The notes under the pieces: generated by a model | Database searches by the model: none | The model's input: the letters and a program-made list of their open reading frames with translations, nothing else | What the model was told of the DNA's origin: nothing | Translations under genes and position numbers: made by a program | Shown: positions 36,133-53,610 of the stretch, piece after piece | Layout: the number at the start of each line of letters is the position of its first letter | Position numbering within the stretch: position 1 is the first letter of the stretch | NCBI GenBank assembly: GCA_964583155.1 | Contig: CAZOUY010000005.1 | Coordinates: forward strand, 7,698 to 71,697 | Reading direction: 5' to 3' | Length of the DNA stretch: 64,000 nt | DNA from: an uncultured Coprobacillus sp. | GTDB lineage: Bacteria; Bacillota_I; Bacilli_A; RFN20; CAG-826

Positions 36133-36168
36133 AAACGTGATTTGAATAAGATAAATCACGTTTTTTTA
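36133..36168 (+). terminator. Rho-independent terminator of the atp operon
   Basis: AAACGTGATTT/AAATCACGTTT stem followed by TTTTTTAT. Confidence 0.65.
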
Positions 36169-36330
36169 TGATAATAAAAAGACGCTAATGATATTAATAT
36201 TTAGATTTTATAAGCAAAATGCAAGAAATAAGGTGGCCTTTTTTTAATTTTTCTTAGGACGATATAATTTTTATTTTGTTTACTAGTTTATAAAAATGTG
36301 CTAATATTCAAATTATGATTTGGAGGCATT

Positions 36331-37449: not shown

Positions 37450-37456
37450 AAAAAAG

Positions 37457-37486
37457 AAAGTGGAAAATATCTTCCACTTTTTTATT
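37457..37486. terminator. Bidirectional terminator between convergent genes
   Basis: AAGTGGAA-AATATC-TTCCACTT flanked by an A-tract and a T-tract. Confidence 0.5.
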
Positions 37487-38030
37487 TTGCTTTGACAAAG
37501 CTATCGAGAAAATGTGCAAAATAGCGATAGCTCTGAAATCCTTTTGAGGGGATACCATGCGAAGCGACAAGCTCGCCTAAGCGAAAAAAATAAAAATAGG
37601 GTGTGCCATAGCGTAAGGTACCATTTTCATTTGTAGAGAAGAGATCTGGATAAAGCGAACCTAGACCATCGATAATTTCTTGATCACTGTTACCTAAGGT
37701 GTATTTTTCTAAGGTTGAAAACACATAATGGGTCGTACAAATGTATTTCATAAAGATTGGCTGCGCGAGAAGGCAATAATGACATTCCGGAGAGTGCATA
37801 TACAAGACAAAATCCTCTTTTTGATCGATTTTGGTCATGATAGAAGCGACGGTGACCGTTTCGCTATAATTAGAATAAGATAATTCTTGATAATCAACAT
37901 CAGCGGGTTTAACATAAAGCTCATTTTTCGATAGCGGAATTTTCAAATCATCAGGGAGTCCCATCTTGGATCCGCATGAGGAAAGAAGAACACTGATTAA
38001 CAAACCGCTTACAGCTAATTTTTTTTGCAT
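37482..38030 (-). CDS. Thioredoxin-fold lipoprotein (CxxC)
   Basis: Lipobox LLSSCG, a CHYC redox motif inside MHSPECHYCLLAQPIF, and a length of about 180 aa. Confidence 0.5.
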   Translation of the reverse strand: MQKKLAVSGLLISVLLSSCGSKMGLPDDLKIPLSKNELYVKPADVDYQELSYSNYSETVTVASIMTKIDQKEDFVLYMHSPECHYCLLAQPIFMKYICTTHYVFSTLEKYTLGNSDQEIIDGLGSLYPDLFSTNENGTLRYGTPYFYFFRLGELVASHGIPSKGFQSYRYFAHFLDSFVKAK

Positions 38031-38139
38031 GATCTCGCCTCCATCATTTATATTATATCACAAATTATGATTTCGTTATTTTAGACCTATTGTTTTTACT
38101 TGATTCATGCTAAAATAAAGAAAACAAGGAGGATTTATC

Positions 38140-38682
38140 ATGAATATATGGCACGATGTGTCGAAAAGCCGTATTCAACCGGAAGATTTTGTGGCGTGCA
38201 TTGAAATACCATCCGGATGCAAGAATAAGTATGAGCTCGATAAACAAACCGGGACCCTTATTTTAGATCGCATTCTTTATACATCCACCCACTATCCGCA
38301 AAATTATGGCTTTATTCCTCATACATATGCAGGAGATTATGATCCACTCGATGTTCTTGTTATCTGTTCAGAGCCGATCGTACCGTTGGCTTTAGTTCAA
38401 TGCTATCCTATTGGTATCGTCAATATGGTCGATTCAGGTTTACCGGATGAGAAGATTATTGCGGTTTGCGCTCACGATCCGATATATGGTAATTATCGTG
38501 AAATATGCGAATTACCGGCACATATCTTTGATGAAATATGTCATTTTTTCCGGGTTTATAAAAACCTAGAGAAAAAGGATACGGATGTTCTTTCGATTGA
38601 AGGACGTCAAAAGGCGATTGAGGTTATTAAACAAGCGATCGCTAATTATGAAAAAGAATTTGGAAATAAAGGAGAAAAATAA
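38140..38682 (+). CDS. ppa: Inorganic pyrophosphatase (family I)
   Basis: [13 protein letters not shown]...DGDPLDVLV-type motifs (here [12 protein letters not shown]). Confidence 0.85.
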
Positions 38683-39317
38683 TGAAATTATTTATTGATA
38701 CGGCTAATATCGAGCATATTAGAATCGCTTCCAAATGGGGAGTCATTTCAGGTGCGACCACCAATCCATCTTTGATTGCTAAAGAAGGAAGAAAGGTAGA
38801 GGAGGTCGTCAAAGAAATCGTCACCTTAATCGATGGACCTATTTCGGCGGAGGTCCAAGAGGCTAGCGCCGAAGAAATGGTGGCCGAAGCCCGGAAATTG
38901 GTCAAAATCCATCCTAATATCGTCATCAAAATTCCGATGACTATGGAGGGGATTGCGGCGACCTCGATTTTGCATAAGGAAGGAATCCATACGAATGTGA
39001 CCTTAGTTTTCTCAGTTTCGCAGGCCTTAATGGCGTGTGAAGCGGGTGCGACTTATATTTCACCATTCATGGGCCGCGTGGATGATGCGGGACATTCCGG
39101 TGCGGAATTGATCGCTAAAATCATGGCGATGATTAGCAATTATGGCTATGAAACCCAAGTCATCGCCGCTAGCATCCGCAATTTAGCTCATGTTGAGCAA
39201 GCCGCTTTAGCCGGTGCGGATATCGCAACCATTCCGTTTGCCGTCTTAGAAAAGATGGTGAAGGATCCTTTAACCGATAACGGATTAGCGATTTTTAGAG
39301 AAGCAGCCAAAAAATAA
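38682..39317 (+). CDS. Fructose-6-phosphate aldolase/transaldolase family protein (TalC/Fsa type)
   Basis: [14 protein letters not shown]...GATTNPSL and a TalC-like length of 211 aa. Confidence 0.8.
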
Positions 39318-39330
39318 CGATGAAAAGATA

Positions 39331-39363
39331 AATGTCCATCGATGAAGGATGGGCATTTTTTTG
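39331..39363 (+). terminator. Rho-independent terminator
   Basis: ATGTCCATC/GATGGGCAT stem with one G-U wobble, then TTTTTTT. Confidence 0.55.
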
Positions 39364-39426
39364 ATTAATTAATAGTTAAAAGGCCCAATTTCTGATTTTT
39401 ATCATACGCTAAAGAGGGTGATAAAA

Positions 39427-39843
39427 ATGCGAGTTCGTTATCGGGATGCGGACGTTTCTTTATTAGGACGATTAATGCGTTCAGAAGCACAAGGAGAAGG
39501 CAATTTTGGTATGAAATTAGTCGGCAATGTTGTTATTAATCGCGTTGTTGCGAATTGTTCTCCTTTTAAAAAGCTTTCCACAATTGAAAGTGTTGTCATG
39601 CAAAAAAATGCCTTTGAGGGCATTAATACGCCATTATTTCAGGCAGGAGCGACCACCTTAGAAAGAAGATTAGCGCTCGATTGTATTAAATTTTGGCGAG
39701 CCGATCCGGCCTATGCGGCGTTATATTTTCAAGCGCCCGGGAAAGGGAAGCCTTGTAAAACACGATTTTGGGGAAAATTAGAGGGGAAATTTAAAAACCA
39801 TTGCTTTTATTCCTCGGATGGCGATGAAGATTGTGGACTATAG
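39427..39843 (+). CDS. Cell wall hydrolase, SleB/CwlJ-like (Hydrolase_2 domain only)
   Basis: LMRSEAQGEGNFGMKLVGNVVINRV matches the Hydrolase_2 core. About 139 aa. The preferred start is the ATG at 39427. Confidence 0.55.
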   Translation: MRVRYRDADVSLLGRLMRSEAQGEGNFGMKLVGNVVINRVVANCSPFKKLSTIESVVMQKNAFEGINTPLFQAGATTLERRLALDCIKFWRADPAYAALYFQAPGKGKPCKTRFWGKLEGKFKNHCFYSSDGDEDCGL

Positions 39844-40659
39844 TAAATGAAGCGGATCATCTAAATGCTCCGCTTTTTCTTTAGCGATATGAAGATAGAC
39901 ATCATCATGATATAGTTCATTCATCATAAGAGCCCAATAGTACCATAAAAGATCATTAAACTGTAAAAAGGCCATCACTTTTTGATAGTGCTCCGCGGTT
40001 AAAGGTGTTAAAAAATATTGTTTCAAGAAATATTTAATCAAATCCGGATCTTTGAGGTTATTCTCACTGATAAAGGAAGCTAAATCAAAATAAGGATCAT
40101 CATAGCCACCGTATTCCAAATCGATGATTTCGACATGATCGGAAAAAAGGAGGATATTGCCACTTACGAGATCATGATGACAGGGAACCTGTTGGTCGGA
40201 TAAGAAAAGCAAATAATTATCAATAATGGCTTTTTCCTTCGGATGCGGATTTATTTTCGCTCTTTTTCGATATTGATAGCATCTATCTAAACCATCGAAC
40301 TTTTGAAGACCACTGATTGCGGTTTGATGCATTTTTCTTAAAAGGTGAGCGATCTCTTGATAAGTCGTTAGCGATGCTTGTTGAGCGTCAAATTCATGAA
40401 AACCCTGAATATAGGGGGTGATTTTCAAATTTCTTTGAGCGTCGAAGGCTAATAAAGGAATCGAAGGATGGATTAACGCTCCAAGAGCGGTCTCCATCAA
40501 TTTTTCGTTAGCGGGAGAAAGATCGTAGCGAAGAGGCTTCTTAGGAACGCGCAAAAGATAACGATCATTGATAAGATAATGGTCGTTGCTCAATCCGAGT
40601 TTCATTTGTCGAACACTATTGATAGGCTCTAAGGTGAAAAAGGCGAGATATTCTTCCAT
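39838..40659 (-). CDS. Phosphotransferase family protein (choline/ethanolamine kinase/APH-like)
   Basis: Catalytic loop HHDLVSGNILL and the IIDLEYGGYDDPYFDLASF motif. Confidence 0.65.
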   Translation of the reverse strand: MEEYLAFFTLEPINSVRQMKLGLSNDHYLINDRYLLRVPKKPLRYDLSPANEKLMETALGALIHPSIPLLAFDAQRNLKITPYIQGFHEFDAQQASLTTYQEIAHLLRKMHQTAISGLQKFDGLDRCYQYRKRAKINPHPKEKAIIDNYLLFLSDQQVPCHHDLVSGNILLFSDHVEIIDLEYGGYDDPYFDLASFISENNLKDPDLIKYFLKQYFLTPLTAEHYQKVMAFLQFNDLLWYYWALMMNELYHDDVYLHIAKEKAEHLDDPLHLL

Positions 40660-40715
40660 AGCGACTACTCCTTTCCTTTGGAAAATGGTATATTAATAAA
40701 AAACGAGGTGTCATT

Positions 40716-41237
40716 ATGCTCCATATTATTTTATATCAACCGGAAATTCCTGCCAATACGGGAAATATTATGCGAACCTGTAAAGCCATAAATGCCACGC
40801 TTCACATCATTGGTCCTTTGACATTTTCTTTAGAAGAAAAATCGTTGAAAAGGGCCGGAATGGATTATATTGAAGGCTTGACAATGAAAATATATGAATC
40901 ATACGTTGATTTTTGTCAAAAGAATCCGAATGCGGATATCTATTATATCAGTCGCTATGGCGAAAAGACATATTCACAAGCGGATTTCACGCATATTGCC
41001 CATACCTATTATTTGATGTTTGGACGAGAATCGATGGGGATTCCGCATGATATTCTTAATGATCATCTCGATCGATGCCTAAGGATTCCGATGGTAGCGA
41101 GCGCGAGAAGCCTCAATCTTTCGAACTGTGTGGCGATTGTCGCCTATGAAGTCATGAGACAGCAGGGCTTTTATGGATTGAGCACCAAGGAAGCGATTAA
41201 GGGGGAAGATTTTTTATTGAAGGAGAAAGGTAAATAA
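40716..41237 (+). CDS. trmL: tRNA (cytidine34/U34-2'-O)-methyltransferase, SpoU family
   Basis: LHIILYQPEIPANTGNIMRTC and a SPOUT fold length of 173 aa. Confidence 0.75.
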   Translation: MLHIILYQPEIPANTGNIMRTCKAINATLHIIGPLTFSLEEKSLKRAGMDYIEGLTMKIYESYVDFCQKNPNADIYYISRYGEKTYSQADFTHIAHTYYLMFGRESMGIPHDILNDHLDRCLRIPMVASARSLNLSNCVAIVAYEVMRQQGFYGLSTKEAIKGEDFLLKEKGK

Positions 41238-42608
41238 CGAGTCATCGATCTTATTTAAATGCAGCGTTTGATAATGATTGAGCTGTACAAGACCGGATTT
41301 GGATGTTTTTTTCACCTGATTAATCGGAGTATAAATGACATCGCCATCGGATAGATGCGCTAGCTTAAGGGCTAACGAGGCGGCATAAATAAGGACTTCC
41401 TTATTGGGATTGCTATCAAAAATAACGACATGAGCGCCTTGATGATTTTGAACGTGCAGGAAGATATCGTTTTTGCGCGCTAAATGAAAGGTCAAGGTAT
41501 CATTTTGGAGATTGTTTTTGCCATAGCCGATTTTTACGCCCTGAAAGTAGCAAAAATATGGTTGAATCGCTGGATGATGGGGGAACTTTTTCTTAGAGGC
41601 CTTCTTTAAATAACCATTATTTACTAGTTCTTCTTCCATCTCCTGCAAATCACGTTCGGAGGCTCCTTCCCATTGCGATTCCAAAATACTAAAATAATCG
41701 ATTTCCGCTTTGGTCTCCGCCATTTGTCTTGTTAAATGCTCTTCGGCATTCCGAGCTTTTTGGTATTTCTTATAATATAGAAGCGCATTGTCTTTTGCGG
41801 ATTTATCCGCATCAAGAGGAATGACATAATCAAAAATGCGGAATTCGTTTTGCTCAGGATGCACCTCATCAAGATAGGTGATGAGCAAATCTCCGTATTC
41901 CTTCCACATGTCCTTTTTTTGCGACATGAGCAATTCTTGATTTTGGCGTTGCCATTTTTTTAACGCTGATTTTTTATGCGATTTGATTAACGATAAAATC
42001 GCATTAAACTTATCCTTTTTGCGCTTGTCTTCGATGCTTTTTCGGTAATCATCAAAAAGGGATAGATAATCAAACGCGATGGGGTCGATATTTTCCTTCC
42101 ATTGCACGTTTTTTTCAGGACAAGTATAGGTTAATCCCTTTAACAAAGGGCGTTTGCTTTCCAAATCACCATGACGATAGACAAGTAAAATCCTTCGATC
42201 CTTATCCAGCAAAAGCATATTAGCATTACCGGTAATCAATTCAATCACCAAGTAGCGGCGGTTTGTTTCATAGACATCATTTGTACATTGTAAGGTCCAA
42301 ACCACGATCCGATCATTATTCCATAATTCAAGATTTTCGACATAGGCATGATCAAGCTCTTTCCGCAATGAAAGAAAAAATGGTGACGCGAGAGTGCTGC
42401 TTGGATCCTTAAATTCAGTAAGACTTATAAAAGGATGAGAAGATTGTAAGGAAATAATCACCCGTTGGGTCTTATTTTTCGAAAGAGAAAAGAAGAAATC
42501 AGTTTTCGAATATTCAACGAATTTACCAAGATAAGAGCCAAGAGCTTTTTCTTTTATTTCTTGAACAATATAGAGCAGATTACCAGCATTTAAAGACATT
42601 TTCATCAC
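41214..42608 (-). CDS. rqcH: NFACT family protein (RqcH/FbpA-like ribosome quality control)
   Basis: An N-terminal NFACT-N-like pattern. The C-terminal NFACT-R/DUF814 motif is VHVQNHQGAHVVIF...TPINQVKK. At 464 aa it is shorter than canonical RqcH. Confidence 0.5.
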   Translation of the reverse strand: MMKMSLNAGNLLYIVQEIKEKALGSYLGKFVEYSKTDFFFSLSKNKTQRVIISLQSSHPFISLTEFKDPSSTLASPFFLSLRKELDHAYVENLELWNNDRIVVWTLQCTNDVYETNRRYLVIELITGNANMLLLDKDRRILLVYRHGDLESKRPLLKGLTYTCPEKNVQWKENIDPIAFDYLSLFDDYRKSIEDKRKKDKFNAILSLIKSHKKSALKKWQRQNQELLMSQKKDMWKEYGDLLITYLDEVHPEQNEFRIFDYVIPLDADKSAKDNALLYYKKYQKARNAEEHLTRQMAETKAEIDYFSILESQWEGASERDLQEMEEELVNNGYLKKASKKKFPHHPAIQPYFCYFQGVKIGYGKNNLQNDTLTFHLARKNDIFLHVQNHQGAHVVIFDSNPNKEVLIYAASLALKLAHLSDGDVIYTPINQVKKTSKSGLVQLNHYQTLHLNKIDDSLFTFLLQ

Positions 42609-42734
42609 CTTTTTTAATATATCATAGATGCTTCAAAAAAGAAAAAGAATAGGTATATAATGAACATAAGCGTAAATTTATTAAGATTGGTATTAAATAG
42701 ATAATATAATATGAAAATATTTAAAAAAGTGTTA

Positions 42735-42763
42735 TTGTTATTTTAGATAGTCGCCATAATAAT
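42735..42763 (+). promoter_or_regulatory. Weak candidate sigma-A promoter upstream of the SLR-TIR-NACHT gene
   Basis: TTGTTA, a 17-nt spacer and AATAAT. RBS AGAGG lies 9 nt before the ATG at 42787. Confidence 0.25.
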
Positions 42764-42786
42764 TTTCATTAATAGAGGTATAAACA

Positions 42787-45700
42787 ATGAAGTATGAAAA
42801 CGCACTTTTAAAGGCAACAGCTGAAACCATCGATGAGTTTTATGAATTAATTGCGCAAGGATATAATATTTTTAATATCACCTTAAATATTGATGACGAG
42901 GAAAAGAAAAAGCTATTTGAAAGGGCATCGATGAGAAAACACCCTAATGATGATTACATTTTAGGATATTGCTACTATAATGGTGTTGGAATAGAACGGA
43001 ATTATAGTCAAGCATTTGAGCATTTTAAAATATCCGCTAATGATGGCGATTTAAGAGCACAAAATAATCTTGGCTTGTGTTATTATGATGGCCAGGGCGT
43101 TCCACAAAGCTATGAAGAAGCAGTAAAATGGTATAGATTAGCGGCAGATCAAGAAAATGCAAATGCACAATATAATCTCGGCTGTTGCTATTATAATGGT
43201 TTAGGTGTCTCACAAAGCTATGAAGAAGCAGTAAAATGGTATAGATTAGCGACAAATCAAGGACTTGCAAGAGCACAATTAAATCTTGGCAATTGCTATT
43301 ATAATGGTCAAGGTGTTCCACAGAGTTATGAAGAAGCAGTCAAGTGGTGTAGATTAGCGGCAGATCAAGGAAATGCAAGAGCACAATATACTCTCGGTGT
43401 TTGCTATTATAATGACCGAGGCGTTCCACAAAGCTATGAAGAAGCAGTAAAGTGGTATAGATTAGCGGCAGATCAAGGATATGCTGATGCACAATATAAT
43501 CTTGGCAATTGCTATTATAAAGGCCAAGGTGTTCCACAAAGCTATGAAGAAGCCGTAAAATGGTATAGATTAGCGGCAAATCAAGGAGATGCTGATGCAC
43601 AAAATAATCTCGGCCTTTGTTATGATAATGGCCAAGGTGTTTCGCAAAGCTATGAAGAAGCCGTGAAGTGGTATAGATTAGCCGCAAATCAAGGAAATGC
43701 AAGAGCTCAATATAATCTTGGCAATTGCTATTATAAAGGCCAAGGTGTTTCACAAAGCTATGAAGAAGCCATGAAGTGGCATAGATTAGCGGCAGATCAA
43801 GGATATGCTGATGCACAATATAATCTTGGCAATTGCTATTATAAAGGCCAAGGTGTTCCACAAAGCTATGAAGAAGCCGTAAAATGGTATAGATTAGCGG
43901 CAGATCAAGGGCTTGTAGAAGCTCAATATAATCTAGCTTTTTGCTATAAGTATGGTCAAGGTGTTCCACAAAGCTATGAAGAAGCCGTGAAGTGGTATAG
44001 ATTAGCCGCAAATCAAGGAGATGCTGATGCACAAAATAATCTCGGCCTTTGTTATGATAATGGCCAAGGTGTTTCGCAAAGCTATGAAGAAGCCGTGAAG
44101 TGGTATAGATTAGCCGCAAATCAAGGAAATGCAAGAGCTCAATATAATCTTGGCAATTGCTATTATAAAGGCCAAGGTGTTTCACAAAGCTATGAAGAAG
44201 CCATGAAGTGGTATAGATTAGCGGCAGATCAAGGAAATGCAAGAGCTCAATATAATCTTGGTGTTTGCTATGATAATGGCCAAGGCGTTCCACAAAGCTA
44301 TGAAGAAGCCGTGAAGTGGTATAGATTAGCCGCAAATCAAGGAAATGCAAGAGCTCAATATATCCTAGCTCTTTGTCATGCTAATGACAAAGATATGGCA
44401 CAAAGTTATGAAGAAGCAGCAAAGTGGTGGACATTAGCCGCAAATCAAGGAAATGCAAGAGCACAATATAATCTCGGTGTTTACTATGCTAAAGGCCAAG
44501 GTGTTCCACAAGATTATAAAGAAGCCGTGAAGTGGTATAGATTAGCGGCAGATCAAGGATATGCTGATGCACAATATAATCTCGGAGTTTGCTATGCTAA
44601 AGGCCAAGGTGTCTTACAAGATTATGAAGAAGCATCCAAGTGGTGGACATTAGCTGCAAATCAAGGACATGCAGATGCTCAATATGATCTCGGTGTTTGC
44701 TATGCTAAAGGCCTAGAATTGCCACAGAGTTATGAAGAAGCATCCAAATGGTGGAAATTAGCTGCAAATCAAGGGCTTGCAGATGCTCAATATGATCTCG
44801 GTTTTTGCTATGCTAAAGGCCAAGGTGTCTCACAAGATTATGAAGAAGCATCCAAGTGGTGGAAATTAGCGGCGAATCAAGGAAATGCAGAAGCTCAATA
44901 TAATCTAGCTCTTTGTTATAATAAAGGTCAAGGTGTTCCACAAAGTTATGAAGAAACAGTAAAGTGGTATAGATTATCTGCAGAGCAAGGACATGCAGGC
45001 GCACAAAATAATCTCGGTGTTTGCTATTATAATGGCCTAGGCTTGCCACAGAGTTATGAAGAAGCCGTGAAGTGGTGGACATTATCGGCAAATCATGGAC
45101 TTCCAATTGCTCAATATAATCTCGACGTTTGCTATGAGAATGGTCAAGGCATTCCACAAATTTATGAGGAAACTATTCAATTAGAGAGGAATATAGGAAA
45201 AAAAGAGTCTCAATATTATGATGAACGAGCAAAATTGTTGAAATCAGCGGCAGATCAAGGATATGCTGATGCACAATATAATCTCGGTGTTTGCTATGAG
45301 AATGGCAAAGGAGTTCCACAAAGTTATGAAGAAGCCGTGAAATGGTATAGATTAGCGGCAGATCAAGGACATGCAGGTGCTCAATACAATCTCGGCGTTT
45401 GCTATGAAAATGGTTTCGGCATTCCACAAAGTGATGATGAAGCCGTTAAATTGTATAAAAAAGCGGCAGATCAAGGCGATAAAGAAGCACAACTTGCGTT
45501 AGATAAAATATTAACAGAATTAGAAATAGAATATAAATTTAACAATGTAGGAAAAAGTTATGATGTATTCGTGTCATGGAATCATAACGATAAGGATTTT
45601 AAAAATCGATTGGTTGATGGAATAGAAAATAAGAATAATATTAATAATGATGGAGAAGCATTATATACTCATTATCGTGCTTGGGAAAGTGATCGAGATG

Positions 45701-47607
45701 CAAGTGGGGTCATAGATTTATGTATTGAAAGAGCTATTAAGTCTTCTAAGTTTTTTTTGATTATTCTTTCAAAATATTCTCTAAAAAGCAAATGGGTAAA
45801 AAAGGAACTCGAAATAGCGTTACAATGTGTGAAAAACGGGGAATTGACTGAAGAAAATTTGATCATTGTCTATTTGGACAGTGAAGATTTTAACGTCAGT
45901 GAAGAAATTGCAAAAATAAGCGATGAAAATGATCCATTCAAAAAGCTAATTACTTTTGCTTTAGCAGGTAAGTATTCCGATAAAAATGATGATCGAATAG
46001 TGACTAATGTCTGTGCCCAAATCCAACAAGGAATGGCAAAAACAGCGATACGTAACTATATCTATCAACATACGAAAGAAAATGAATTTAAATACAACGT
46101 TCAAAGTCAGTATAGTGATAATAATATGTCAGGGAATCCCGTCGATGCTTTCATGACATATGAAGATGGATATATTGATCGGAATATTTATGATGAAAAA
46201 GATAATGGCTTTAGCATTGATGAAGTGATCAATAGTAAAGAAAACCTCATCATAGTGGGTGAAGGAGGAATCGGTAAAAGTCTTTATCTATCCTATTTAA
46301 TGTATAAGCATTTGGCCATTAATAAGTTTTATGTCAGAATCAACTTAATTAACTATGTCGGTTTACTTAAAAGTATTAATTCCATTGATCAATTGTTAAA
46401 TACAGAACTAGAAACCTATCTTAATGGTAAAGTTGGTGTTGCTAAAGATAATTATCTTCCAACAATTAGAGAAAATGGGGCATCAATAACGATTATTATG
46501 GATGGCTTAGAGGAAATAGATGATGAAAATAATGAAAAGTTATGTAAACTTATTAAAGCATATCGTGCGGCAAATACATGGGATCGATTTATTTTTACAT
46601 CGCGAAATGAGAATAGTAGGCCAGTAAATGGAATAAAAGAAATTTTTATTAGCAAAGATATCCGTGTATTACATCTAGAAAGATTAACATACGAAGAGCA
46701 AAAAAGTTTATTTGATAATATTGCCAAAAGAATTATAAAGGATCCAAAGCCAGGTGAGATAGGACCTAATCGAGAAAGACTTAAAATAGATTTTTTTGAA
46801 GAATTAAAAAAGATAAGTGATGAAATAACAGGTAATCCATTCTTGTTATCAAATCTTATTTTCATTTACCTTTTTAGAAGTGGCGAGGATAAAAATAAAG
46901 ACCTACCAAAAACGAGATATGAAATTATTAAACAAATCGTCGATATCTTTATTCATAAGCTTGAAGATAATCGAGGAGTATTATCATTATTCAAATATAA
47001 AGATTACTTAACACCACAAAGAATGGAGAAGCTACTAGGAAATATAGCTTTACGTAAATTACAGGGCGCACGTCAAAACTTCAAGGAATTGATTTATGAA
47101 TACTTAAGTAAAGAAGAGAGAAGCGCTAAAGAACATAATATAGAAAAAGTAGCTAAAGAAATATATGAATATCTGGCGCGACGAGCGATCATTTATGAAA
47201 ATAAGATTTCTCACGATCTTTTCACATCCTTTTTTGCTACTTACTATATTTATTTAAATGTCTATCAGCTAAAAAATAAGCATGATGTTTATTATATAGG
47301 CTTTCAAAAAGAGGGCAAGGAATATTTTAAATATCGGTTAGAGGAGTTTAAGAAACATATTGAACGATGGGCTGATGTTCCGATTGAAATTATTATGCAG
47401 CTTGATTATGAGATAAGAAATTTAAATGATCAGGAGATGGATGATAGCAATATGAGTAAAACAGTTTTCAAAGAAACATTAGAACTAGCAAAAGATGGTT
47501 TACCGGATTTTGTAAAGATGATGCAGGAATATCTTGATAGACAGGGAACATTCTACTTTGAAACATTTATTAGGCAATTATTATCACTCATGGAAGAGAA
47601 GGTATAA
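42787..47607 (+). CDS. 1606-aa Sel1-repeat/TIR/NACHT (STAND NTPase) protein, a candidate NLR-like antiviral defense protein
   Basis: About 23 tandem 36-aa Sel1-like repeats (consensus AQYNLGNCYYKGQGVPQSYEEAVKWYRLAADQG) span roughly aa 55-910.
The TIR domain starts at YDVFVSW, with IERAIKSSKFFLIILSKYSLKSKWVKKELEIAL matching the plant and bacterial TIR alphaC-to-betaD region including the catalytic Glu.
The NACHT domain has Walker A GEGGIGKS, Walker B IIMDGLEEID, FIFTSR and GNPFLLS motifs. Confidence 0.8.
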   Translation: MKYENALLKATAETIDEFYELIAQGYNIFNITLNIDDEEKKKLFERASMRKHPNDDYILGYCYYNGVGIERNYSQAFEHFKISANDGDLRAQNNLGLCYYDGQGVPQSYEEAVKWYRLAADQENANAQYNLGCCYYNGLGVSQSYEEAVKWYRLATNQGLARAQLNLGNCYYNGQGVPQSYEEAVKWCRLAADQGNARAQYTLGVCYYNDRGVPQSYEEAVKWYRLAADQGYADAQYNLGNCYYKGQGVPQSYEEAVKWYRLAANQGDADAQNNLGLCYDNGQGVSQSYEEAVKWYRLAANQGNARAQYNLGNCYYKGQGVSQSYEEAMKWHRLAADQGYADAQYNLGNCYYKGQGVPQSYEEAVKWYRLAADQGLVEAQYNLAFCYKYGQGVPQSYEEAVKWYRLAANQGDADAQNNLGLCYDNGQGVSQSYEEAVKWYRLAANQGNARAQYNLGNCYYKGQGVSQSYEEAMKWYRLAADQGNARAQYNLGVCYDNGQGVPQSYEEAVKWYRLAANQGNARAQYILALCHANDKDMAQSYEEAAKWWTLAANQGNARAQYNLGVYYAKGQGVPQDYKEAVKWYRLAADQGYADAQYNLGVCYAKGQGVLQDYEEASKWWTLAANQGHADAQYDLGVCYAKGLELPQSYEEASKWWKLAANQGLADAQYDLGFCYAKGQGVSQDYEEASKWWKLAANQGNAEAQYNLALCYNKGQGVPQSYEETVKWYRLSAEQGHAGAQNNLGVCYYNGLGLPQSYEEAVKWWTLSANHGLPIAQYNLDVCYENGQGIPQIYEETIQLERNIGKKESQYYDERAKLLKSAADQGYADAQYNLGVCYENGKGVPQSYEEAVKWYRLAADQGHAGAQYNLGVCYENGFGIPQSDDEAVKLYKKAADQGDKEAQLALDKILTELEIEYKFNNVGKSYDVFVSWNHNDKDFKNRLVDGIENKNNINNDGEALYTHYRAWESDRDASGVIDLCIERAIKSSKFFLIILSKYSLKSKWVKKELEIALQCVKNGELTEENLIIVYLDSEDFNVSEEIAKISDENDPFKKLITFALAGKYSDKNDDRIVTNVCAQIQQGMAKTAIRNYIYQHTKENEFKYNVQSQYSDNNMSGNPVDAFMTYEDGYIDRNIYDEKDNGFSIDEVINSKENLIIVGEGGIGKSLYLSYLMYKHLAINKFYVRINLINYVGLLKSINSIDQLLNTELETYLNGKVGVAKDNYLPTIRENGASITIIMDGLEEIDDENNEKLCKLIKAYRAANTWDRFIFTSRNENSRPVNGIKEIFISKDIRVLHLERLTYEEQKSLFDNIAKRIIKDPKPGEIGPNRERLKIDFFEELKKISDEITGNPFLLSNLIFIYLFRSGEDKNKDLPKTRYEIIKQIVDIFIHKLEDNRGVLSLFKYKDYLTPQRMEKLLGNIALRKLQGARQNFKELIYEYLSKEERSAKEHNIEKVAKEIYEYLARRAIIYENKISHDLFTSFFATYYIYLNVYQLKNKHDVYYIGFQKEGKEYFKYRLEEFKKHIERWADVPIEIIMQLDYEIRNLNDQEMDDSNMSKTVFKETLELAKDGLPDFVKMMQEYLDRQGTFYFETFIRQLLSLMEEKV
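42949..45516 (+). repeat. Tandem 108-bp coding repeats (Sel1-like units), with near-identical copies and duplicated higher-order blocks of about 420 bp
   Basis: A stretch such as caaagctatgaagaagccgtgaagtggtatagattagccgcaaatcaagg recurs many times. The segment 43560-43800 is nearly identical to 43980-44220. Confidence 0.85.
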
Positions 47608-47674
47608 TTTTATAGCGGATAGTTGCGCAAGAAATGGCGATAATCGCGGAATTGCAAATATTTAAAATTTCGCG

Positions 47675-47703
47675 TTGCTTTTTTACCTGTTATTAAATAT
47701 AAT
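47675..47703 (+). promoter_or_regulatory. Sigma-A type promoter upstream of gmk
   Basis: TTGCTT, a 17-nt spacer and TATAAT, about 70 nt upstream of the gmk ATG. Confidence 0.45.
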
Positions 47704-47771
47704 ATGAATATTCGAATATGGCACATTTATTAATTTATTAATAAAAAAGGCATGATTGTAGGTGAATTACA

Positions 47772-48356
47772 ATGCAAAAAGGGCTTCTTATTATCCTAAG
47801 CGGACCGAGTGGTGTTGGCAAAGGCACAATTAGACGGAAAGTGATGGAAGATTTGTCTCTTAATTTAGTTTATTCAATTTCGATGACTACTCGTAAACCC
47901 CGAAATCAAGAGGTAGAGGGCGAGGATTATTTTTTCGTGTCCGATGAAGAATTTGATCGAAATGTGGAAAACGGTAATTTACTGGAATGGGCGTCCTTTG
48001 TCGGCAATCGCTATGGGACCCCGAAGGATTATGTCGAGAGGTTGCGCGCTGAAGGAAAGAATGTCTTTTTGGAAATTGAGGTCGATGGGGCGCGCCAGGT
48101 AATGCAAAAGTGCCAAGGATCCGATGTCTTTTCAATCTTCCTGATTCCTCCATCTTTAGAAGCGCTAGAGCAAAGAATTCGCGGTCGGAGAAGTGAAAGT
48201 GAAGAGATTATTCGCGAAAGATTGGAGAAAGCCAAACGGGAAATGGGATTGAAATTCCACTATCATTATGTCGTTTTGAATGACGATGTTGATCGAGCGG
48301 CCAATGAGATTAAGGGCATTATTCGTTCGAAGATAAACGCAGTTATTCATAAATAA
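47772..48356 (+). CDS. gmk: Guanylate kinase
   Basis: P-loop ILSGPSGVGKGT and the guanylate kinase motifs. Confidence 0.85.
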   Translation: MQKGLLIILSGPSGVGKGTIRRKVMEDLSLNLVYSISMTTRKPRNQEVEGEDYFFVSDEEFDRNVENGNLLEWASFVGNRYGTPKDYVERLRAEGKNVFLEIEVDGARQVMQKCQGSDVFSIFLIPPSLEALEQRIRGRRSESEEIIRERLEKAKREMGLKFHYHYVVLNDDVDRAANEIKGIIRSKINAVIHK

Positions 48357-48381
48357 ATAAGGGACGTAAGGAGGAAAGAGC

Positions 48382-50580
48382 ATGCGAGTTTTAGAGGTAT
48401 ATATTGAACATGCTACTATCGATTTAGATCGTCCCTTTTCTTATGTCTATTTAGGTGATAAAAGGGTTGAAAAGGGCTTTCGTGTGATCGTCCCCTTTAA
48501 CAAACAAAAAAGGATAATCGGTTTCGTAAGCAAGGTGATCGAAACTACGAAAAGCAAGGAAGAATACGAACAAGAAAATGGCTTTGCTTTAAAAGAAATA
48601 ATCGATGTTTTAGATCATGAAAAGCTTCTTGATGAGGATCTATGGGAATTAGCCCAAAGGATGGCTAAATACTATTTCACCCCGCTTATTAAAGTTTTGC
48701 AAACGATGCTTCCCCCTTCGATGAAGCCCCAATCAAGCGCTTTAAAAGCTCCGAAAATCGCTTATGAATATTATGTGGAACTGCTTGATAGCAATGAAGA
48801 GGGCTTAACCACCAAGCAAAAAGAGTGGTTACGCTTGATAGCTAATGAGAAAAGAATATTAAAAAAAGATTTTCGGTCACCGACAATTCTTGACAAACTG
48901 TGTGCCTTAAAAAGGGTTAAGATTGTCAAGGAGGAGAAAAGGCGACTTATTCTTCCCAAGTTCGATCCTTTAACGCCTCATGAATTAACGATAGATCAAA
49001 AACGGGTGATCCAAGAATTCTTGTCTTCTTCCCAAGACGTCTCTTTATTAGAGGGAGTAACTGGATCAGGAAAAACAGAGGTTTATGCCCGTTTGATCGA
49101 TCATTATTTATCAAAAAATCAGAATGTTCTTTTTTTAGTACCAGAAATCGCTTTAACTCCGATGATGGTTGAGTATTTTTCTATGCGCTTTTCGACGAAA
49201 ACCGCTATTTTGCATTCGGAGTTAACACCCGCACAGAAATACGATGAATATCGAAAAATCGCTCATGGTGAGGCTCATTTGGTGATTGGAGCAAGGAGCG
49301 CCATTTTTGCCCCCTTGCACAATATTGGGTTAATAATTTTGGATGAAGAGCATGTTGAATCCTATAAACAGGAGCAAAGCCCGAGCTACCATGCCTTAGA
49401 AATCGCGAAATGGCGGGGTCAAATGGAAGGGGCGAGAATTCTTTTAGGAAGCGCTACTCCGAGTTTAGAATCGCGAGCCCGTGCCTTAAAGGGAGTCTAT
49501 CAATATCTTCGGTTGCCACGTCGTATCCATAATCAAGAATTGCCGACAACTGAGATTATCGATTTATTGAAGCCTCATCAAGTTGATCGGGATTCGGTCC
49601 TTTTTTCCTTATCCTTGCGTCAGGCTATCACCGATCGCTTGAATAAGCATGAGCAGATCGTTTTGCTTTTAAATCGGAGAGGCTATTCTCCTTATGTCAG
49701 CTGCCGTCGTTGCGGTCATGTTTTTGTGTGCCCCGAATGTCAAATCACGCTTTCGTATCATCGTCAGGATAATATGCTGAAATGCCATCATTGCGACCAT
49801 GTTGAAGAGATGCCTAAGGCTTGCCCGAATTGTGGTAGCGTCTATCTTAGCAAGCAGGGCTTTGGCACCGAGAAAATCGAAGAGGAAGTCAAGCGCTTAT
49901 TCCCTAAGGCCCGTACTCTACGCTTAGATTCGGATGTTTCGCGTATCAAGGTCAATAGTGAGAAGATACTTGCTAAATTCCGTAATCATGAAGCCGATAT
50001 TCTCATCGGCACGCAAATGATCGCGAAAGGTCATGATTTTCCTGATGTAACTTTAGTGGGCATTGTTTTAGCGGACATCGGTTTAACGATGCCATCTTTT
50101 CGTTCGTCCGAAAGAACCTTCCAATTGATTACCCAGGGGGTGGGACGCGCCGGGCGCGGGCAAAAAAGAGGTCACGCCATCATTCAAACCTATATGCCTC
50201 AGCACTATGCGGTGTATTTAGCGGCCAAGCAGGATTATACCTCCTTTTTTAAGGCGGAGATGAAAACGCGGAAATTGCAGCAATATCCGCCATATACCTT
50301 TTTAATTTCGCTTTGGATTTCCTCCACCAACGAGGAAGGCTTAGTAGTTGTGGCTAATGAGATGAAGGATAAATTGGAAAAGGAATTGGCTAAAGAGGCG
50401 ACTTTGATCGGCCCCTCCACGCCATATATCGCCAAAAAGGGCGCTTATTATTATCGGCATATCTTGATCAAGTATCAACGCCCCGAAAAAATCGAGATGG
50501 CCTTGGAGGAATTAAAGAGGCTATTCGAGGGTAAAAGCTCCTATCATTTACGGATTGATCGCGATCCTTATGACTTTTAA
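48382..50580 (+). CDS. priA: Primosomal protein N' (replication restart helicase PriA)
   Basis: Helicase motif I GVTGSGKTEVY, DEEH, the zinc-binding Cys cluster CRRCGH...CPEC...CHHCDH...CPNCG, and a length of 732 aa. Confidence 0.85.
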   Translation: MRVLEVYIEHATIDLDRPFSYVYLGDKRVEKGFRVIVPFNKQKRIIGFVSKVIETTKSKEEYEQENGFALKEIIDVLDHEKLLDEDLWELAQRMAKYYFTPLIKVLQTMLPPSMKPQSSALKAPKIAYEYYVELLDSNEEGLTTKQKEWLRLIANEKRILKKDFRSPTILDKLCALKRVKIVKEEKRRLILPKFDPLTPHELTIDQKRVIQEFLSSSQDVSLLEGVTGSGKTEVYARLIDHYLSKNQNVLFLVPEIALTPMMVEYFSMRFSTKTAILHSELTPAQKYDEYRKIAHGEAHLVIGARSAIFAPLHNIGLIILDEEHVESYKQEQSPSYHALEIAKWRGQMEGARILLGSATPSLESRARALKGVYQYLRLPRRIHNQELPTTEIIDLLKPHQVDRDSVLFSLSLRQAITDRLNKHEQIVLLLNRRGYSPYVSCRRCGHVFVCPECQITLSYHRQDNMLKCHHCDHVEEMPKACPNCGSVYLSKQGFGTEKIEEEVKRLFPKARTLRLDSDVSRIKVNSEKILAKFRNHEADILIGTQMIAKGHDFPDVTLVGIVLADIGLTMPSFRSSERTFQLITQGVGRAGRGQKRGHAIIQTYMPQHYAVYLAAKQDYTSFFKAEMKTRKLQQYPPYTFLISLWISSTNEEGLVVVANEMKDKLEKELAKEATLIGPSTPYIAKKGAYYYRHILIKYQRPEKIEMALEELKRLFEGKSSYHLRIDRDPYDF

Positions 50581-50639
50581 CTTTCTTTTTTGTTGATAAT
50601 TTGCTATGATATCGCTTGGATAAGAAGGAGAATATCGAT

Positions 50640-51146
50640 ATGATTACCATTACTTTTATTGGATCTGATCGCTATGTTATCGGACAATATTCAAAAGAAG
50701 TGACTGCTAAATTAGCGAATTTATGGGAGGTTGAGGAGGATGAAATTCTCTTCTTGGCTCCGGAAATTTATGTTTATCATCAAGGCGTCGAGCAAACATC
50801 GTATCAGGTATTGGTCGAAGTTAATGCTCCGGAGGCCTGCCGAATGGTCGAAAAAGAAGTAGCCGATTATATTTTAAAGACCGCGGAAGCCTTTGTGGTT
50901 CATCTCGCCGTGCGGTTTAAATATTTTAAAGAGAAGACCTATGCTCATATCCGGGATGATTATCCGCGTTATATCACCGAAGAGAACGAAGTGCTCATTG
51001 AAAAGGAAGAGTATGACGAGGAAACGGAAATATATGAAGGAAATATTTTCGAAAATTTCGAAGAGCGTTTAAAAAAGCGCGCTGAGCAAGAAGAAAGCGA
51101 AAGAGAGCATCATGATGATTGTTGTCATGATCATCATCGTCATTAA
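50640..51146 (+). CDS. Hypothetical protein with a His/Cys-rich C-terminal tail (EHHDDCCHDHHRH)
   Basis: AAGGAG RBS 9 nt before the ATG at 50640. It occupies the priA-rsmB gap where def and fmt usually sit. Confidence 0.45.
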   Translation: MITITFIGSDRYVIGQYSKEVTAKLANLWEVEEDEILFLAPEIYVYHQGVEQTSYQVLVEVNAPEACRMVEKEVADYILKTAEAFVVHLAVRFKYFKEKTYAHIRDDYPRYITEENEVLIEKEEYDEETEIYEGNIFENFEERLKKRAEQEESEREHHDDCCHDHHRH

Positions 51147-51163
51147 GAAGCAATTCTTCATCA

Positions 51164-51193
51164 ATCAATAGTTTTATCGCTATTGATTTTTTT
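51164..51193 (+). terminator. Rho-independent terminator
   Basis: ATCAATAG/CTATTGAT stem followed by TTTTTTT. Confidence 0.45.
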
Positions 51194-51302
51194 ATTTCTC
51201 GGTGATGGAAACGTGATTTAAACCGCTATTTAATAAATTATTTATTAAATAATTTTATTATGACGGACAATTTGCTAAAATAGAATGAAAGAAGGTGACA
51301 AA

Positions 51303-52577
51303 ATGAATGAGATTTTAATCGCTACCAAGATTATCGATAAAATTCAAAATGAAAGCACTCCTAGTAGCGTCTTGATGCGCAACTACTTTTTGTCACACTT
51401 TTGTCCACGCGAAACGCGCAAGACTATTCAGACCTTGGTGATGAAGACCTTCGCAAATTGGTATGTCTTCAATGCCATTGTTAAGGATAGCTTTCCTAAG
51501 ATTAGGGAAGAAGAAATTCTCGTCCTTTGCGTCGGTTTAGCCAACACCGTTTTCGTCCATGCCTTTAGCGCTGATGATACTATTGAAAAGGTCATCGATG
51601 CGCTTGCGGTCGATCATCAGCTTTCGCTTAGTATGATTGAGACGATTTTTCATCATGAATATCAAAAGCAAAATTTGGTTCCAAGCTATGTCGATCACCA
51701 GTCGAATGAATACTACCATCTCCGCTATAATATTCCTTTATGGCTCGTCGAGATGTGGAATCGTCATTATGGAAAGACGGTTTCTTATCGGATGATTGCC
51801 TCGTTAAAACAAAAACCTCTTCGTTCTTTTCGCGTGAATGAGAAAATCATTAAAAGACGCGAGCTTTTGGAAAAATATCCCGCTGAATTAGTGTCCGGTA
51901 TCAGTGAAACCACCGTTCATTATCGAGGCAATAGGCCTACCTCCAAGCTCGATTTCTATCGCAGGGGAGAAGGAATAATGATTGCTGAAGGCTCCAATCA
52001 TGCAATTAATAAAATTCCTTTGCATTCTCTTGATAATGTCTTAGTGGTGGCGGAGCAGCATTCATCCTTACCTTTGGCGCTTTTAGGTCGCTTTAAAGGG
52101 ACAGAGCAAATGCTCTATGCCCTATTGAATAATAGCGAAACGTTAAAGGCGAAAAAGGATATTGAAAAATATCACTTTTCCAACGTTGAGGTGATTGAAT
52201 CGTCATTATCATTGCTTTTAACCTACATTTCTTATCCTCAAGATATCGTCATGGTGGTGCCACCATCAAGCCGATTTCAATATATCAAAACGGAATATGA
52301 CTTTTTTGTTCATTTTAAACGCGATGATCTCGATCGCATCATCAATATGCAATATTCCTATCTCGAGGAATGCGCTTCTTTCGTAAAGGAGAGTGGCCAT
52401 TTAATTTATCTTGTCGAGACCGCGAACAACAAAGAAGGGAGTTTGCAGATTCGTCGCTTTTTGCAAAATCATGATGATTTCTCATTAGTCGAGGAACGGC
52501 AGATGCTACCGCTTGATCGTCGGCAAACGATGTGCTACTTTGCATTTTTAAAAAAGGAGGCCTCTCATCATGATTAA
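51303..52577 (+). CDS. RsmB/Sun-like protein with an N-terminal NusB-like domain. The methyltransferase domain appears catalytically dead.
   Basis: Position between priA and rlmN as in Firmicutes. NusB-like N-terminus. The motif IV equivalent reads DIVMVVPPSSRF, with the Cys replaced. The motif VI equivalent reads LIYLVETANN, with no TCS Cys. No AAPGGKT SAM motif is present. Confidence 0.45.
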   Translation: MNEILIATKIIDKIQNESTPSSVLMRNYFLSHFCPRETRKTIQTLVMKTFANWYVFNAIVKDSFPKIREEEILVLCVGLANTVFVHAFSADDTIEKVIDALAVDHQLSLSMIETIFHHEYQKQNLVPSYVDHQSNEYYHLRYNIPLWLVEMWNRHYGKTVSYRMIASLKQKPLRSFRVNEKIIKRRELLEKYPAELVSGISETTVHYRGNRPTSKLDFYRRGEGIMIAEGSNHAINKIPLHSLDNVLVVAEQHSSLPLALLGRFKGTEQMLYALLNNSETLKAKKDIEKYHFSNVEVIESSLSLLLTYISYPQDIVMVVPPSSRFQYIKTEYDFFVHFKRDDLDRIINMQYSYLEECASFVKESGHLIYLVETANNKEGSLQIRRFLQNHDDFSLVEERQMLPLDRRQTMCYFAFLKKEASHHD

Positions 52578-53610
52578 CCTTTATGGTTTGGAAATCAAAA
52601 AATTGGAGGCTCTCATGCTCAATGAAGGGCAGACCAAATATCGTGCCACGCAGCTTTATACATGGATTTACGGGAAAAAAGCGACCTCTTTCGATGAAAT
52701 GAGCGATGTTTCCTTACGATTTCGCGAAGTCTTAAAAGAAAAGTATTGCTTAGATAAGCCTTCGATTTATATCCGTCAGGATGCCGCGGATGGCACTGTT
52801 AAATTACTGCTTAATTTAAAGGACAATGCGAAGATTGAAACGGTTTTAATGCGCTACAGCTATGGCAATGTTTTGTGCGTGACCTCGCAGGTCGGCTGTA
52901 ATATGGGGTGTAGCTTCTGTGCTTCCGGTTTATTAAAAAAGCAACGTGATTTGCTTCCCGAAGAGATGGTGGGGCAGGTTTTGGTCATGAATGATCTGCT
53001 TTATCAAGAGGGGGATCATCGTGGCATCACGCACGTTGTGGTTATGGGAACCGGGGAACCCTTTGATAATTATGATAATGTCCTAGATTTTGTTCGCATC
53101 ATCAATCATCCGAAGGCCCTAGCGATCGGAGCTCGGCATATCACTGTTTCCACCTGTGGAATCCCTGAAAAAATCATTCGATACGCTCATGAAGGCTTGC
53201 AGATTAATTTGGCTATTTCTCTGCATGCTCCCAATAATGAAGTTCGTTCGAAAATCATGAAGATCAATCGCGCGTATCCCTTAGAAGAATTGATTCCAGC
53301 GGTTAGTGAATATAATAAAATAGCTTCGCGCCGCGTGACCTTTGAATATATCCTTTTAGCGGGAATAAATGATTCATTGGATGATGCGGATCAGTTAGCA
53401 AAATTAATTCGACCAACTTTTGCCTATGTTAATTTGATTCCCTATAATCCTGTTATGGAAAATGGCTATCGACGCTCTAGTGATGCACAAGTCCATGCAT
53501 TTTTAGATCGATTAACAAAAAGAGGCGTTACGGCAACGGTCAGAAAGGAATTTGGTACGGATATAGATGCCGCGTGTGGACAACTCCGGGCCAAGCATGA
53601 AAAAAGATGA
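52570..53610 (+). CDS. rlmN: 23S rRNA (adenine2503-C2)-methyltransferase, radical SAM
   Basis: The CNMGCSFCASG radical-SAM cluster motif, a second Cys motif and a length of 346 aa. Confidence 0.85.
   Translation: MINLYGLEIKKLEALMLNEGQTKYRATQLYTWIYGKKATSFDEMSDVSLRFREVLKEKYCLDKPSIYIRQDAADGTVKLLLNLKDNAKIETVLMRYSYGNVLCVTSQVGCNMGCSFCASGLLKKQRDLLPEEMVGQVLVMNDLLYQEGDHRGITHVVVMGTGEPFDNYDNVLDFVRIINHPKALAIGARHITVSTCGIPEKIIRYAHEGLQINLAISLHAPNNEVRSKIMKINRAYPLEELIPAVSEYNKIASRRVTFEYILLAGINDSLDDADQLAKLIRPTFAYVNLIPYNPVMENGYRRSSDAQVHAFLDRLTKRGVTATVRKEFGTDIDAACGQLRAKHEKR

Follow-up and report, generated by a model that had tools for sequence, protein, structure and literature searches.

One gene in a 64,000-nucleotide stretch of DNA from an uncultured Coprobacillus sp. 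(contig CAZOUY010000005.1, positions 7,698 to 71,697; the whole stretch is called the window here) encodes an array of Sel1-like repeats (SLR), a TIR domain, and a NACHT NTPase, in that order, in one intact polypeptide. The open reading frame (ORF) at 42787..47607 on the forward strand starts with ATG and runs uninterrupted through 1606 amino acids and a stop codon, as expected from the original prediction of a single intact gene. In the reading that we favor, with a probability of roughly 0.53, the product is a cytoplasmic, single-gene immune receptor resembling the nucleotide-binding leucine-rich repeat (NLR) proteins, was acquired horizontally, and probably acts by abortive infection.

Domains of the encoded protein

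No signal peptide or secretion motif was found in the translation, and the N-terminal leader (aa 1-56; 42787..42954 (+), delimited from the translation) has charged residues along its whole length and no hydrophobic stretch. Since aa 1-56 contain no hydrophobic signal, we take the protein to be cytoplasmic. The repeat array follows (aa 57-894; 42955..45468 (+)), with 22-23 units of 36 aa, or 108 nt. Pfam Sel1 (PF08238) matches it in 22 stretches with an E-value of 3.7e-248, identifying the units as SLR, and a custom repeat hidden Markov model (HMM) places 23 units across aa 57-894, one of them irregular near aa 795-822, close to the approximately 23 N-terminal repeats originally counted. At the DNA level, Tandem Repeats Finder resolves in-frame tandem units of 108 nt, 19.6 copies of them at 82% match and 2.1 further copies. 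A linker (aa 895-924; 45469..45558 (+)) with a predicted local distance difference test (pLDDT) score of 45-54 in the AlphaFold2 (AF2) model joins the array to the TIR domain.

The TIR domain (aa 925-1065; 45559..45981 (+)) lies in the middle of the protein, where it had been predicted, and three Pfam TIR models exceed their curated cut-offs over aa 925-1033 and so identify the domain by profile: TIR_2 with 40.6 bits (cut-off 28), TIR with 30.2 (21.3), and ThsB_TIR with 28.7 (21.2). Three of its motifs do not vary within the family, namely DxFxSWNHxD (aa 926-935), W-x-S-D (aa 966-969), and W1003-x-x-x-E1007. The codon at 45805..45807 (+) specifies E1007, the putative catalytic glutamate of a TIR NADase, which is invariant in 11 of 11 aligned family members and pairs in HMMER alignments with the conserved Glu of the TLR2, PdTIR, and Cat1 TIR domains. 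We take E1007 to be the counterpart of the catalytic E642 of SARM1, which lies within WVHKE, and of the plant TIR glutamate. With this catalytic-type residue conserved, the TIR domain looks catalytically competent, judging from its sequence. A PDB sequence search with the TIR domain alone gave matches that were weak overall, the best of which include TLR TIR domains, and NCBIfam returned repeat-driven matches together with weak ones to EruA and a retron TIR protein. The window TIR also matches the N-terminal TIR-like part of a solved 824-aa "Tetratricopeptide repeat protein" (PDB 9m0n_A / 9umd), which may be a structurally characterized bacterial protein combining TIR with tetratricopeptide repeats (TPR).

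A linker that is helical in the AF2 secondary structure (aa 1066-1140; 45982..46206 (+)), partly disordered at aa ~1102-1121 and the least conserved part of the TIR-NACHT module, connects the TIR domain to the NACHT module (aa 1141-1606; 46207..47604 (+)). This module consists of a nucleotide-binding domain (NBD), a helical domain (HD1), a winged-helix domain (WHD), and a second helical domain (HD2), and it extends to the C terminus. Walker A reads GEGGIGKS (aa 1158-1165 with K1164; 46258..46281 (+)) and fits GxxxxGK[ST], and the pattern G.GG.GKSL is kept unchanged by 11 of 11 members of the family. The Walker B motif, IIMDGLEE (aa 1236-1243; 46492..46515 (+)), carries the NACHT signature D[GAS]hDE as D1239-G-L-E1242-E1243; the fourth position of the signature is E here, not the D of the DGLDE found in most homologs, but is acidic all the same. 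This signature separates NACHT from other STAND clades (Kibby et al., bioRxiv 10.1101/2022.07.19.500537). Further downstream are a sensor-1 motif, FTSR (aa 1270-1273; 46594..46605 (+)), whose R1273 is invariant in the family, and the family's most conserved motif, NPFLLSNLIFIYL (aa 1350-1362; 46834..46872 (+)), in which the columns N-P-x-L-L-S-N-L-I-F-I are invariant.

PDB sequence searches with the TIR-NACHT module, the NACHT profile, and the TIR domain alone were rejected as a basis for clade assignment, having returned only P-loop or weak TIR matches that are uninformative on this point, and structure comparison was used instead. The AF2 model, computed for aa 906-1606 from an 11-sequence alignment and thus ending short of the Sel1 array, has a pLDDT of 78.3 and a predicted template modeling (TM) score of 0.69. 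It contains the expected succession of NBD, helical, winged-helix, and helical domains in a fold nearer to NACHT NLRs than to other STAND clades. The top Foldseek match is RPP1, across TIR and NTPase (E 2e-8); NOD2 and NLRC4 match with a TM score of 0.41, and EfAvs5 and Avs4 appear lower in the ranking. In the structure comparison, MalT (12.6) and the NB-ARC proteins NRC2 and ZAR1 (~11) fall well below the top scorers. By motifs and modeled fold, the NTPase appears to be a NACHT-clade STAND protein, kin to bacterial NLR-related proteins. The predicted NACHT assignment is upheld by these motifs, by the fold, and by family members that score above the Pfam cut-off, while the window protein's own Pfam score lies below it. 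A short helical C terminus without repeats had also been described. Only 6 residues separate the end of the family NACHT profile from the stop codon, and indeed no repeats follow NACHT, but the helices are the normal WHD and HD2 of the NACHT module and do not form an extra domain.

Family membership and domain order

The general model of STAND and NLR proteins has an N-terminal effector, a central NTPase, and a C-terminal sensor, and bacterial NACHT proteins are antiphage (Kibby et al.; 2026 STAND survey). This tripartite order is typical of bacterial NLR-related proteins without strictly defining them. The window protein departs from it, with the order being repeats, effector, NTPase.

The same order recurs throughout its family. 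When the C-terminal 700 residues were used as the query, 20 homologs with 28-41% identity were found, all annotated with Sel1 and TIR, and in 20 of 20 a Sel1 array of variable length precedes a TIR-NACHT module of ~700 aa that ends at the C terminus. We also conducted an exhaustive HMMER search of 1.84 billion representative proteins (50% identity clusters) using a profile of the NACHT module only, which gave 5387 matches at E <1e-3 and 74 at E <1e-30. In one set of these matches, group A (E 1e-204 to ~1e-39), the whole profile is matched and the match ends at the protein C terminus. Its roughly 55 full-length representatives all proved to have the order Sel1, TIR, NACHT with a tail of <=40 aa when custom Sel1, TIR, and NACHT HMMs were applied; members missed by the strict Sel1 HMM have Pfam Sel1 or TPR matches, and the longest reach 1916 aa. 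One group A protein, P0064, comprises TIR-NACHT only, with almost no N-terminal extension.

Group B (E ~1e-39 to 1e-19) matches positions ~5-375 of the profile at residues ~170-540 of the protein, with 300-1600 residues beyond. In its members (L010-L012, P0084, P0088, P0097, and others), Pfam places TIR_2 at the extreme N terminus (aa ~10-100), NACHT above cut-off, and BspA-type leucine-rich repeats (LRR) of the LRR_5 family at the C terminus; a few have other N-terminal domains, such as SMEK_N. The TIR motifs SWNH, WESD, and WVxxE and the motif NPFLL (NPFLLKWL in the relatives of canonical order) are common to groups A and B, which indicates that the TIR-NACHT core is homologous as a unit in both. 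Because the next-nearest relatives thus have TIR, NACHT, and C-terminal LRR_5, the order in group A is genuinely permuted, in keeping with the inverted order first proposed. In evolutionary terms, one lineage has this core joined to LRRs on its C-terminal side, and the other has it joined to Sel1 arrays on its N-terminal side.

Two relatives depart from the usual layout at their N termini. P0080 (1365 aa), a group A representative, has five BspA-type LRR_5 stretches and one Sel1 repeat, all before the TIR domain, so the LRR type found at the C terminus of the canonical relatives also occurs in the permuted position. P0077 (867 aa) has a Bac_transf (sugar transferase) domain fused before TIR-NACHT, which may be a gene-calling or assembly artifact.

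The family is rare but not a one-off, with roughly 55 or more clusters at 50% identity, and the window protein is itself a singleton cluster. Among the GTDB species representatives scanned, all genome matches are metagenome-assembled genomes (MAGs), assigned to uncultured Clostridia, Ca. Stercoripulliclostridium, Bacilli, Anaeroplasma, and Bacillales, and the MAGs bearing homologs apparently come from animal guts. One of them (CAMOUB01, uncultured Bacillales) encodes two Sel1-TIR-NACHT paralogs (L008 and L009) on different contigs. The survey of homologs, suggested at the outset to learn whether the order is conserved and patchily distributed, returned a conserved order in differing contexts with a patchy distribution, and the possibility also raised then that the protein is a ubiquitous core protein is contradicted by these contexts and by the count of only 74 representatives below 1e-30 among 1.84 billion. 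The uncultured, small-genome gut Firmicutes in which the family occurs (Clostridia, Bacilli, and Anaeroplasma-like MAGs) have a defense repertoire that is poorly sampled by E. coli-centered screens.

A candidate immune receptor and its alternatives

The Sel1 array behaves like a fast-evolving, binding-type module, as far as its sequence indicates. Two blocks within it are repeated exactly, one of 204 nt (43576-43779 = 44008-44211) and one of 122 nt (43457-43578 = 43781-43902), which points to several repeat units having been duplicated together very recently and which also puts short-read assembly at risk. Variation within the 36-aa unit is concentrated at positions 1, 4, 6, 9/10, 13, and 16/17, and to a lesser extent 19, 22, 29, and 32/33, while the rest are near-invariant. 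Positions 6, 9/10, 13, and 16/17 are helically periodic and would therefore fall on one face of helix A, the helix whose residues line the binding groove on the concave side of TPR and SLR solenoids. Between closely similar alleles, the array also changes in length: P0007 and P0008 are 100% identical in TIR-NACHT and differ in their arrays by exactly one 36-aa unit, and where TIR-NACHT identity is 85-95%, array length ranges over 221-493 aa.

The gene also differs in composition from its surroundings. Its GC content at third codon positions (GC3) is about 0.24, with each of the Sel1, TIR, and NACHT parts at 0.23-0.24, versus ~0.42 among its neighbors (0.33-0.48, mostly 0.41-0.47, in 15 flanking genes), and this uniformly low GC3 points to horizontal acquisition of the whole gene.

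Comparison with known systems supplies precedents for each part of the protein. The bNACHT proteins with TIR, NACHT, and repeats (Kibby et al.) have the same D[GAS]hDE Walker B, a TIR domain directly upstream of NACHT, and a single polypeptide encoded by a single gene. In the window protein, by contrast, the repeats precede the effector and belong to the Sel1 type, not to LRR, TPR, or HEAT, nothing follows NACHT, and the antiphage role is presumed. The part of Table S1 of the Kibby et al. NACHT survey that was covered contains no Sel1, and only a second TIR precedes TIR plus NACHT there. Avs/AVAST proteins, such as Avs5 with its SIR2 effector, nSTAND3 NTPase, and C-terminal TPR/Sel1-like sensor, likewise combine an NAD+-targeting effector, a STAND NTPase, and helical repeats; the window protein has a weak nSTAND3 Pfam match, and EfAvs5 and Avs4 are among its Foldseek matches. 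Avs5 sensors include Sel1-like repeats, which are C-terminal (Avs5 paper). The Avs sensor is C-terminal, whereas no domain follows the NTPase here, and no Avs model of PADLOC matched, so we do not regard the window protein as an Avs member. Thoeris (ThsB plus ThsA) was rejected as well: the PADLOC matches to ThsB are weak, with E-values of 3e-4 and 0.012, the TIR domain does not stand alone but is joined to Sel1 and NACHT, and no ThsA-like neighbor occurs in the seven distinct neighborhoods that were compared, namely that of the window and six groups of relatives' loci.

Outside bacteria, SARM1 and TIR-1 (ARM-SAM-TIR) also have an alpha-helical solenoid N-terminal to a TIR NADase. In SARM1 this solenoid is an autoinhibitory ligand sensor, and the W-x-x-x-E motif is present, as it is here. 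Homology to SARM1 is confined to the TIR domain; between repeats and TIR, SARM1 has SAM domains that oligomerize constitutively, whereas the window protein has no SAM and an NTP-driven NACHT after the TIR. Plant TIR-NLRs (RPP1, the top Foldseek match, and ROQ1) share the direct fusion of TIR to a STAND NTPase, and TIR NADase activity induced by oligomerization is established in them, but their NTPase is NB-ARC and their sensors are a C-terminal LRR and C-JID. Fungal NLRs of the HET-E/D type, with WD40, ANK, or TPR arrays, are known for near-identical DNA repeats, variation focused on few surface positions, and rapid change in copy number. The Sel1 array has the same features (82% mean identity, with blocks at 100%), although the fungal repeats lie C-terminal to the NTPase and both repeat type and effectors differ. 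The Sel1 units may thus offer a tractable bacterial case of diversification by repeat shuffling, comparable to the fast-evolving repeat sensors of fungal NLRs.

The order Sel1-TIR-NACHT had been put forward as undescribed, and we likewise found no description of it in the Kibby et al. paper, two Aravind-lab surveys, the 2026 STAND survey, the Avs5 paper, or full-text searches, the coverage of which is incomplete, so that absence is no proof of novelty. What stands out is an NLR-like family whose permuted order is conserved and whose N-terminal Sel1 array diversifies; the parts are familiar, as is the probable output, STAND-gated depletion of NAD+ by TIR.

In the receptor model that we favor, an ADP-bound NACHT and the Sel1 solenoid would hold the TIR domains apart in the resting state. 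The array would serve as both sensor and autoinhibitor, a role that falls to the C-terminal LRR or TPR arrays of canonical NLRs and of Avs proteins and to the N-terminal ARM of SARM1. Binding of a phage protein, or of a host protein perturbed by phage, in the Sel1 groove would release the inhibition, upon which NACHT would exchange its nucleotide and oligomerize and the TIR domains would form composite active sites. Hydrolysis of NAD+ by these would then stop growth of the infected cell and, with it, phage replication. Since the repeats are joined on the TIR side, by the low-confidence linker at aa 895-924, autoinhibition may act on the effector, as with the SARM1 ARM, and not necessarily on the NBD, as with the LRR of NLRC4. 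More tentatively, and at somewhat short of even odds, the family could constitute a distinct NLR class in uncultured gut Firmicutes, with an N-terminal Sel1 sensor that expands, contracts, and diversifies, a SARM1-like occlusion of the TIR NADase, and a C-terminal NACHT for NTP-driven oligomerization.

Current NLR and STAND models assume the order effector, NTPase, sensor, with C-terminal repeats that fold back to autoinhibit the NTPase. If the family does form such a distinct class, this order is dispensable for NLR function, and a TIR-NACHT core can have its sensor moved from one end to the other. The close relatives of canonical order allow one to ask how the ligand signal reaches the NTPase, whether autoinhibition acts at the level of the effector as in SARM1, and how sensors are swapped in evolution or engineering.

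Several observations weigh against the immune receptor. None of the seven neighborhoods is a recognizable defense island. No PADLOC system model matched, the only hits being domain-level TIR matches (PDC-S66 and ThsB). No link to mobile elements was seen: the phage collection has no homolog, the only plasmid match is a distant NACHT from Nostoc, and IMG/VR gave a single marginal match. No cultured host or phage is known. The window protein itself scores below the Pfam cut-offs for both NACHT (PF05729, 15.2 against 26.7) and nSTAND3 (23.9 against 27.2). The NACHT cut-off is passed by the family members L005 (34.2 bits), P0080 (29.0), and P0064 (28.3) and also by the canonical-order relatives L010 (39.0) and P0084 (49.0). 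As the AF2 model does not include the array, no contact between Sel1 and TIR or NACHT is seen in it, and a TIR domain can also serve as a scaffold or generate a signal instead of depleting NAD+. The evidence from variation in the array has its own limits. The copy-number spread may partly reflect collapse of repeats in metagenome assemblies. In a Nei-Gojobori-type count over 20 units, the proportions of nonsynonymous (pN) and synonymous (pS) differences are 0.17 and 0.38 over all 36 positions, 0.46 and 0.08 at the five most variable positions (4, 6, 13, 16, and 17), and 0.08 and 0.45 at the 23 positions outside the 13 variable ones, a contrast that would fit a sensor-like array but is suggestive only and partly circular because the sites were picked for their amino-acid variability.

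An alternative that is unlikely, though not negligible, retains an immune NLR in which Sel1 is not the sensor. Sensing would then fall to NACHT, WHD, and HD2 or to the short C-terminal helices, as in the bNACHT01 clade, which lacks repeats, or would be indirect, through a host protein, in the manner of DnaJ and bNACHT25, with the Sel1 array acting as a tether, a guard adaptor, or a spacer that sets the threshold for oligomerization. bNACHT25 reportedly senses phage via DnaJ, and one homolog (L014, L015) lies directly after dnaJ, a proximity limited to that homolog. P0064, which nearly lacks an N-terminal extension, is also consistent with sensing outside the array, as are antiphage NACHT proteins whose C terminus carries no more than a short extension (Kibby et al., bioRxiv 10.1101/2022.07.19.500537). 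Conservation, however, is 0.34 in the C-terminal 110 aa versus 0.36 in the NBD, so that this tail does not exceed the NBD in variability, whereas SNaCT diversifies rapidly, and a hypervariable SNaCT-like sensor tail was rejected; the part that does vary, in copy number and at surface positions, is the array.

We consider it rather improbable that the TIR domain makes a signal, of the cyclic ADP-ribose type or a related nucleotide as with Thoeris ThsB or plant TIR, for an effector encoded elsewhere. The above-cut-off match to ThsB_TIR and the weak PADLOC matches to ThsB would fit such a role, and signal-producing bacterial TIR domains are established according to work cited in the Avs5 paper. 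The contexts examined contain no conserved adjacent effector, whether ThsA/SLOG or caspase-like, and a TIR domain joined to a STAND NTPase is usually regarded as the effector itself (Kibby et al.), both of which speak against a signal-generating TIR.

A non-immune signaling STAND, in which an endogenous or cell-envelope cue bound by Sel1 would act on NAD+ metabolism, dormancy, or programmed death, has a low probability. The neighbors are all housekeeping genes, bacterial Sel1 proteins are often envelope-related or regulatory, and NCBIfam gives repeat-level matches to ExoR, AlgK, and MotX, but apart from repeat content these matches are far below equivalog level. The foreign codon composition, the patchy and rare distribution, the paralogs within one genome, the hypervariable array, and the closest relatives, which are TIR-NACHT-LRR proteins of immune type, all speak against this reading.

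Even less credit can be given to a factor for interaction with a eukaryotic host, interfering with animal TLR or NAD+ signaling like the TIR proteins TcpB and TcpC and the Sel1 proteins of Legionella. Pathogen Sel1 proteins do bind host factors, the MAGs are apparently of animal-gut origin, and TLR TIR domains are among the best PDB sequence matches of the TIR domain. Yet the protein has neither a signal peptide nor a secretion motif, its neighborhood lacks secretion-system genes, its TIR domain is joined to an intact NACHT NTPase, and the relatives have the architecture of bacterial NLRs.

Finally, an assembly artifact, whether by mis-joining or inflation of the repeat array or as a chimeric ORF, is scarcely credible, since despite the exact internal repeats and same-strain short-read contigs that break at 42867 and 45258, the frame is kept over 2.5 kb at strict 108-nt spacing, independent contigs confirm both junctions, and the layout recurs in dozens of unrelated assemblies, which limits the doubt to copy number. 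Exact look-ups of the full protein and of the NFACT neighbor gave no record, the latter probably because its start codon was called differently, and the species was met only in two sequencing runs and the NCBI record. The contigs, from these runs, were located via the neighboring genes gmk and SpoU methylase and are 100% identical to the window over 35453-42867 (L019), 38181-42867 (L020), and 45258-58356 (L018). Together they confirm both gene-neighbor junctions and the whole TIR-NACHT part, and none spans the array, so the exact repeat count lacks independent confirmation. The first position of L018 coincides exactly with the end of the repeated 31-mers in the array. Both L019 and L020 break off after 81 nt of the ORF, although the 31-mer at that point occurs only once in the window, which suggests a branch in the assembly graph, due either to strain heterogeneity or to a paralog, or another copy of the 5' end, located elsewhere in the genome. 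What is secure is the architecture; the exact number of repeats is not.

Genomic context and other features of the window

The gene stands alone among core Firmicute housekeeping genes, with atpAGDC, ppa, transaldolase, SpoU methylase, and NFACT/RqcH upstream and gmk, priA, rsmB, rlmN, stp, prkC, and rsgA downstream. The upstream intergenic region (42609..42786 (+)) contains promoter-like hexamers in a consensus scan, such as those at 42681-42710, from which a promoter is predicted. A Shine-Dalgarno sequence, AGAGGT, can be read at 42774-42779 (+), 7 nt before the ATG. The intergenic regions on either side of the gene share a 13-bp direct repeat, AATATAATATGAA (42703-42715 and 47696-47708), and the surroundings of the two copies are loosely alike; the repeat could be a scar left by an insertion, a duplicated promoter, or a chance occurrence in AT-rich DNA.

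Homologs lie in other contexts: after dnaJ, beside genes for aspartate aminotransferase and polysaccharide genes, after an Fe-hydrogenase gene, between ABC transporters, and beside feoAB. No partner gene is conserved across the seven neighborhoods. In three loci, the homolog is followed by three genes encoding ~243, 396, and 99 aa (L013 13937-16427; L022 5468-7958; L024 4379-6881), the 396-aa product having a long acidic tract. These genes, which have no Pfam match, were rejected as part of a system, being common only to the close relatives L013, L022, and L024; the set is absent near the window gene and in L016 and L023, and the genes further downstream differ among the three loci.

Elsewhere in the window, a gene at 26167-27285 (+) encodes a 372-aa protein with a DUF5677 domain. 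A second ORF of 372 aa, at 36331-37449, was considered as a possible paralog of it and rejected, the two being unrelated. No element in the window reached the Rfam gathering score, and the 64 kb contain no rRNA or tRNA. At 9172-12057 (+) is an ORF of 961 aa with no Pfam match at E 1e-4 or better. Downstream of it are a 5'-nucleotidase-like gene and an AddB/AddA-like pair, which consists of a PD-(D/E)XK nuclease (14536-16857) and a UvrD-type helicase (16832-19882).

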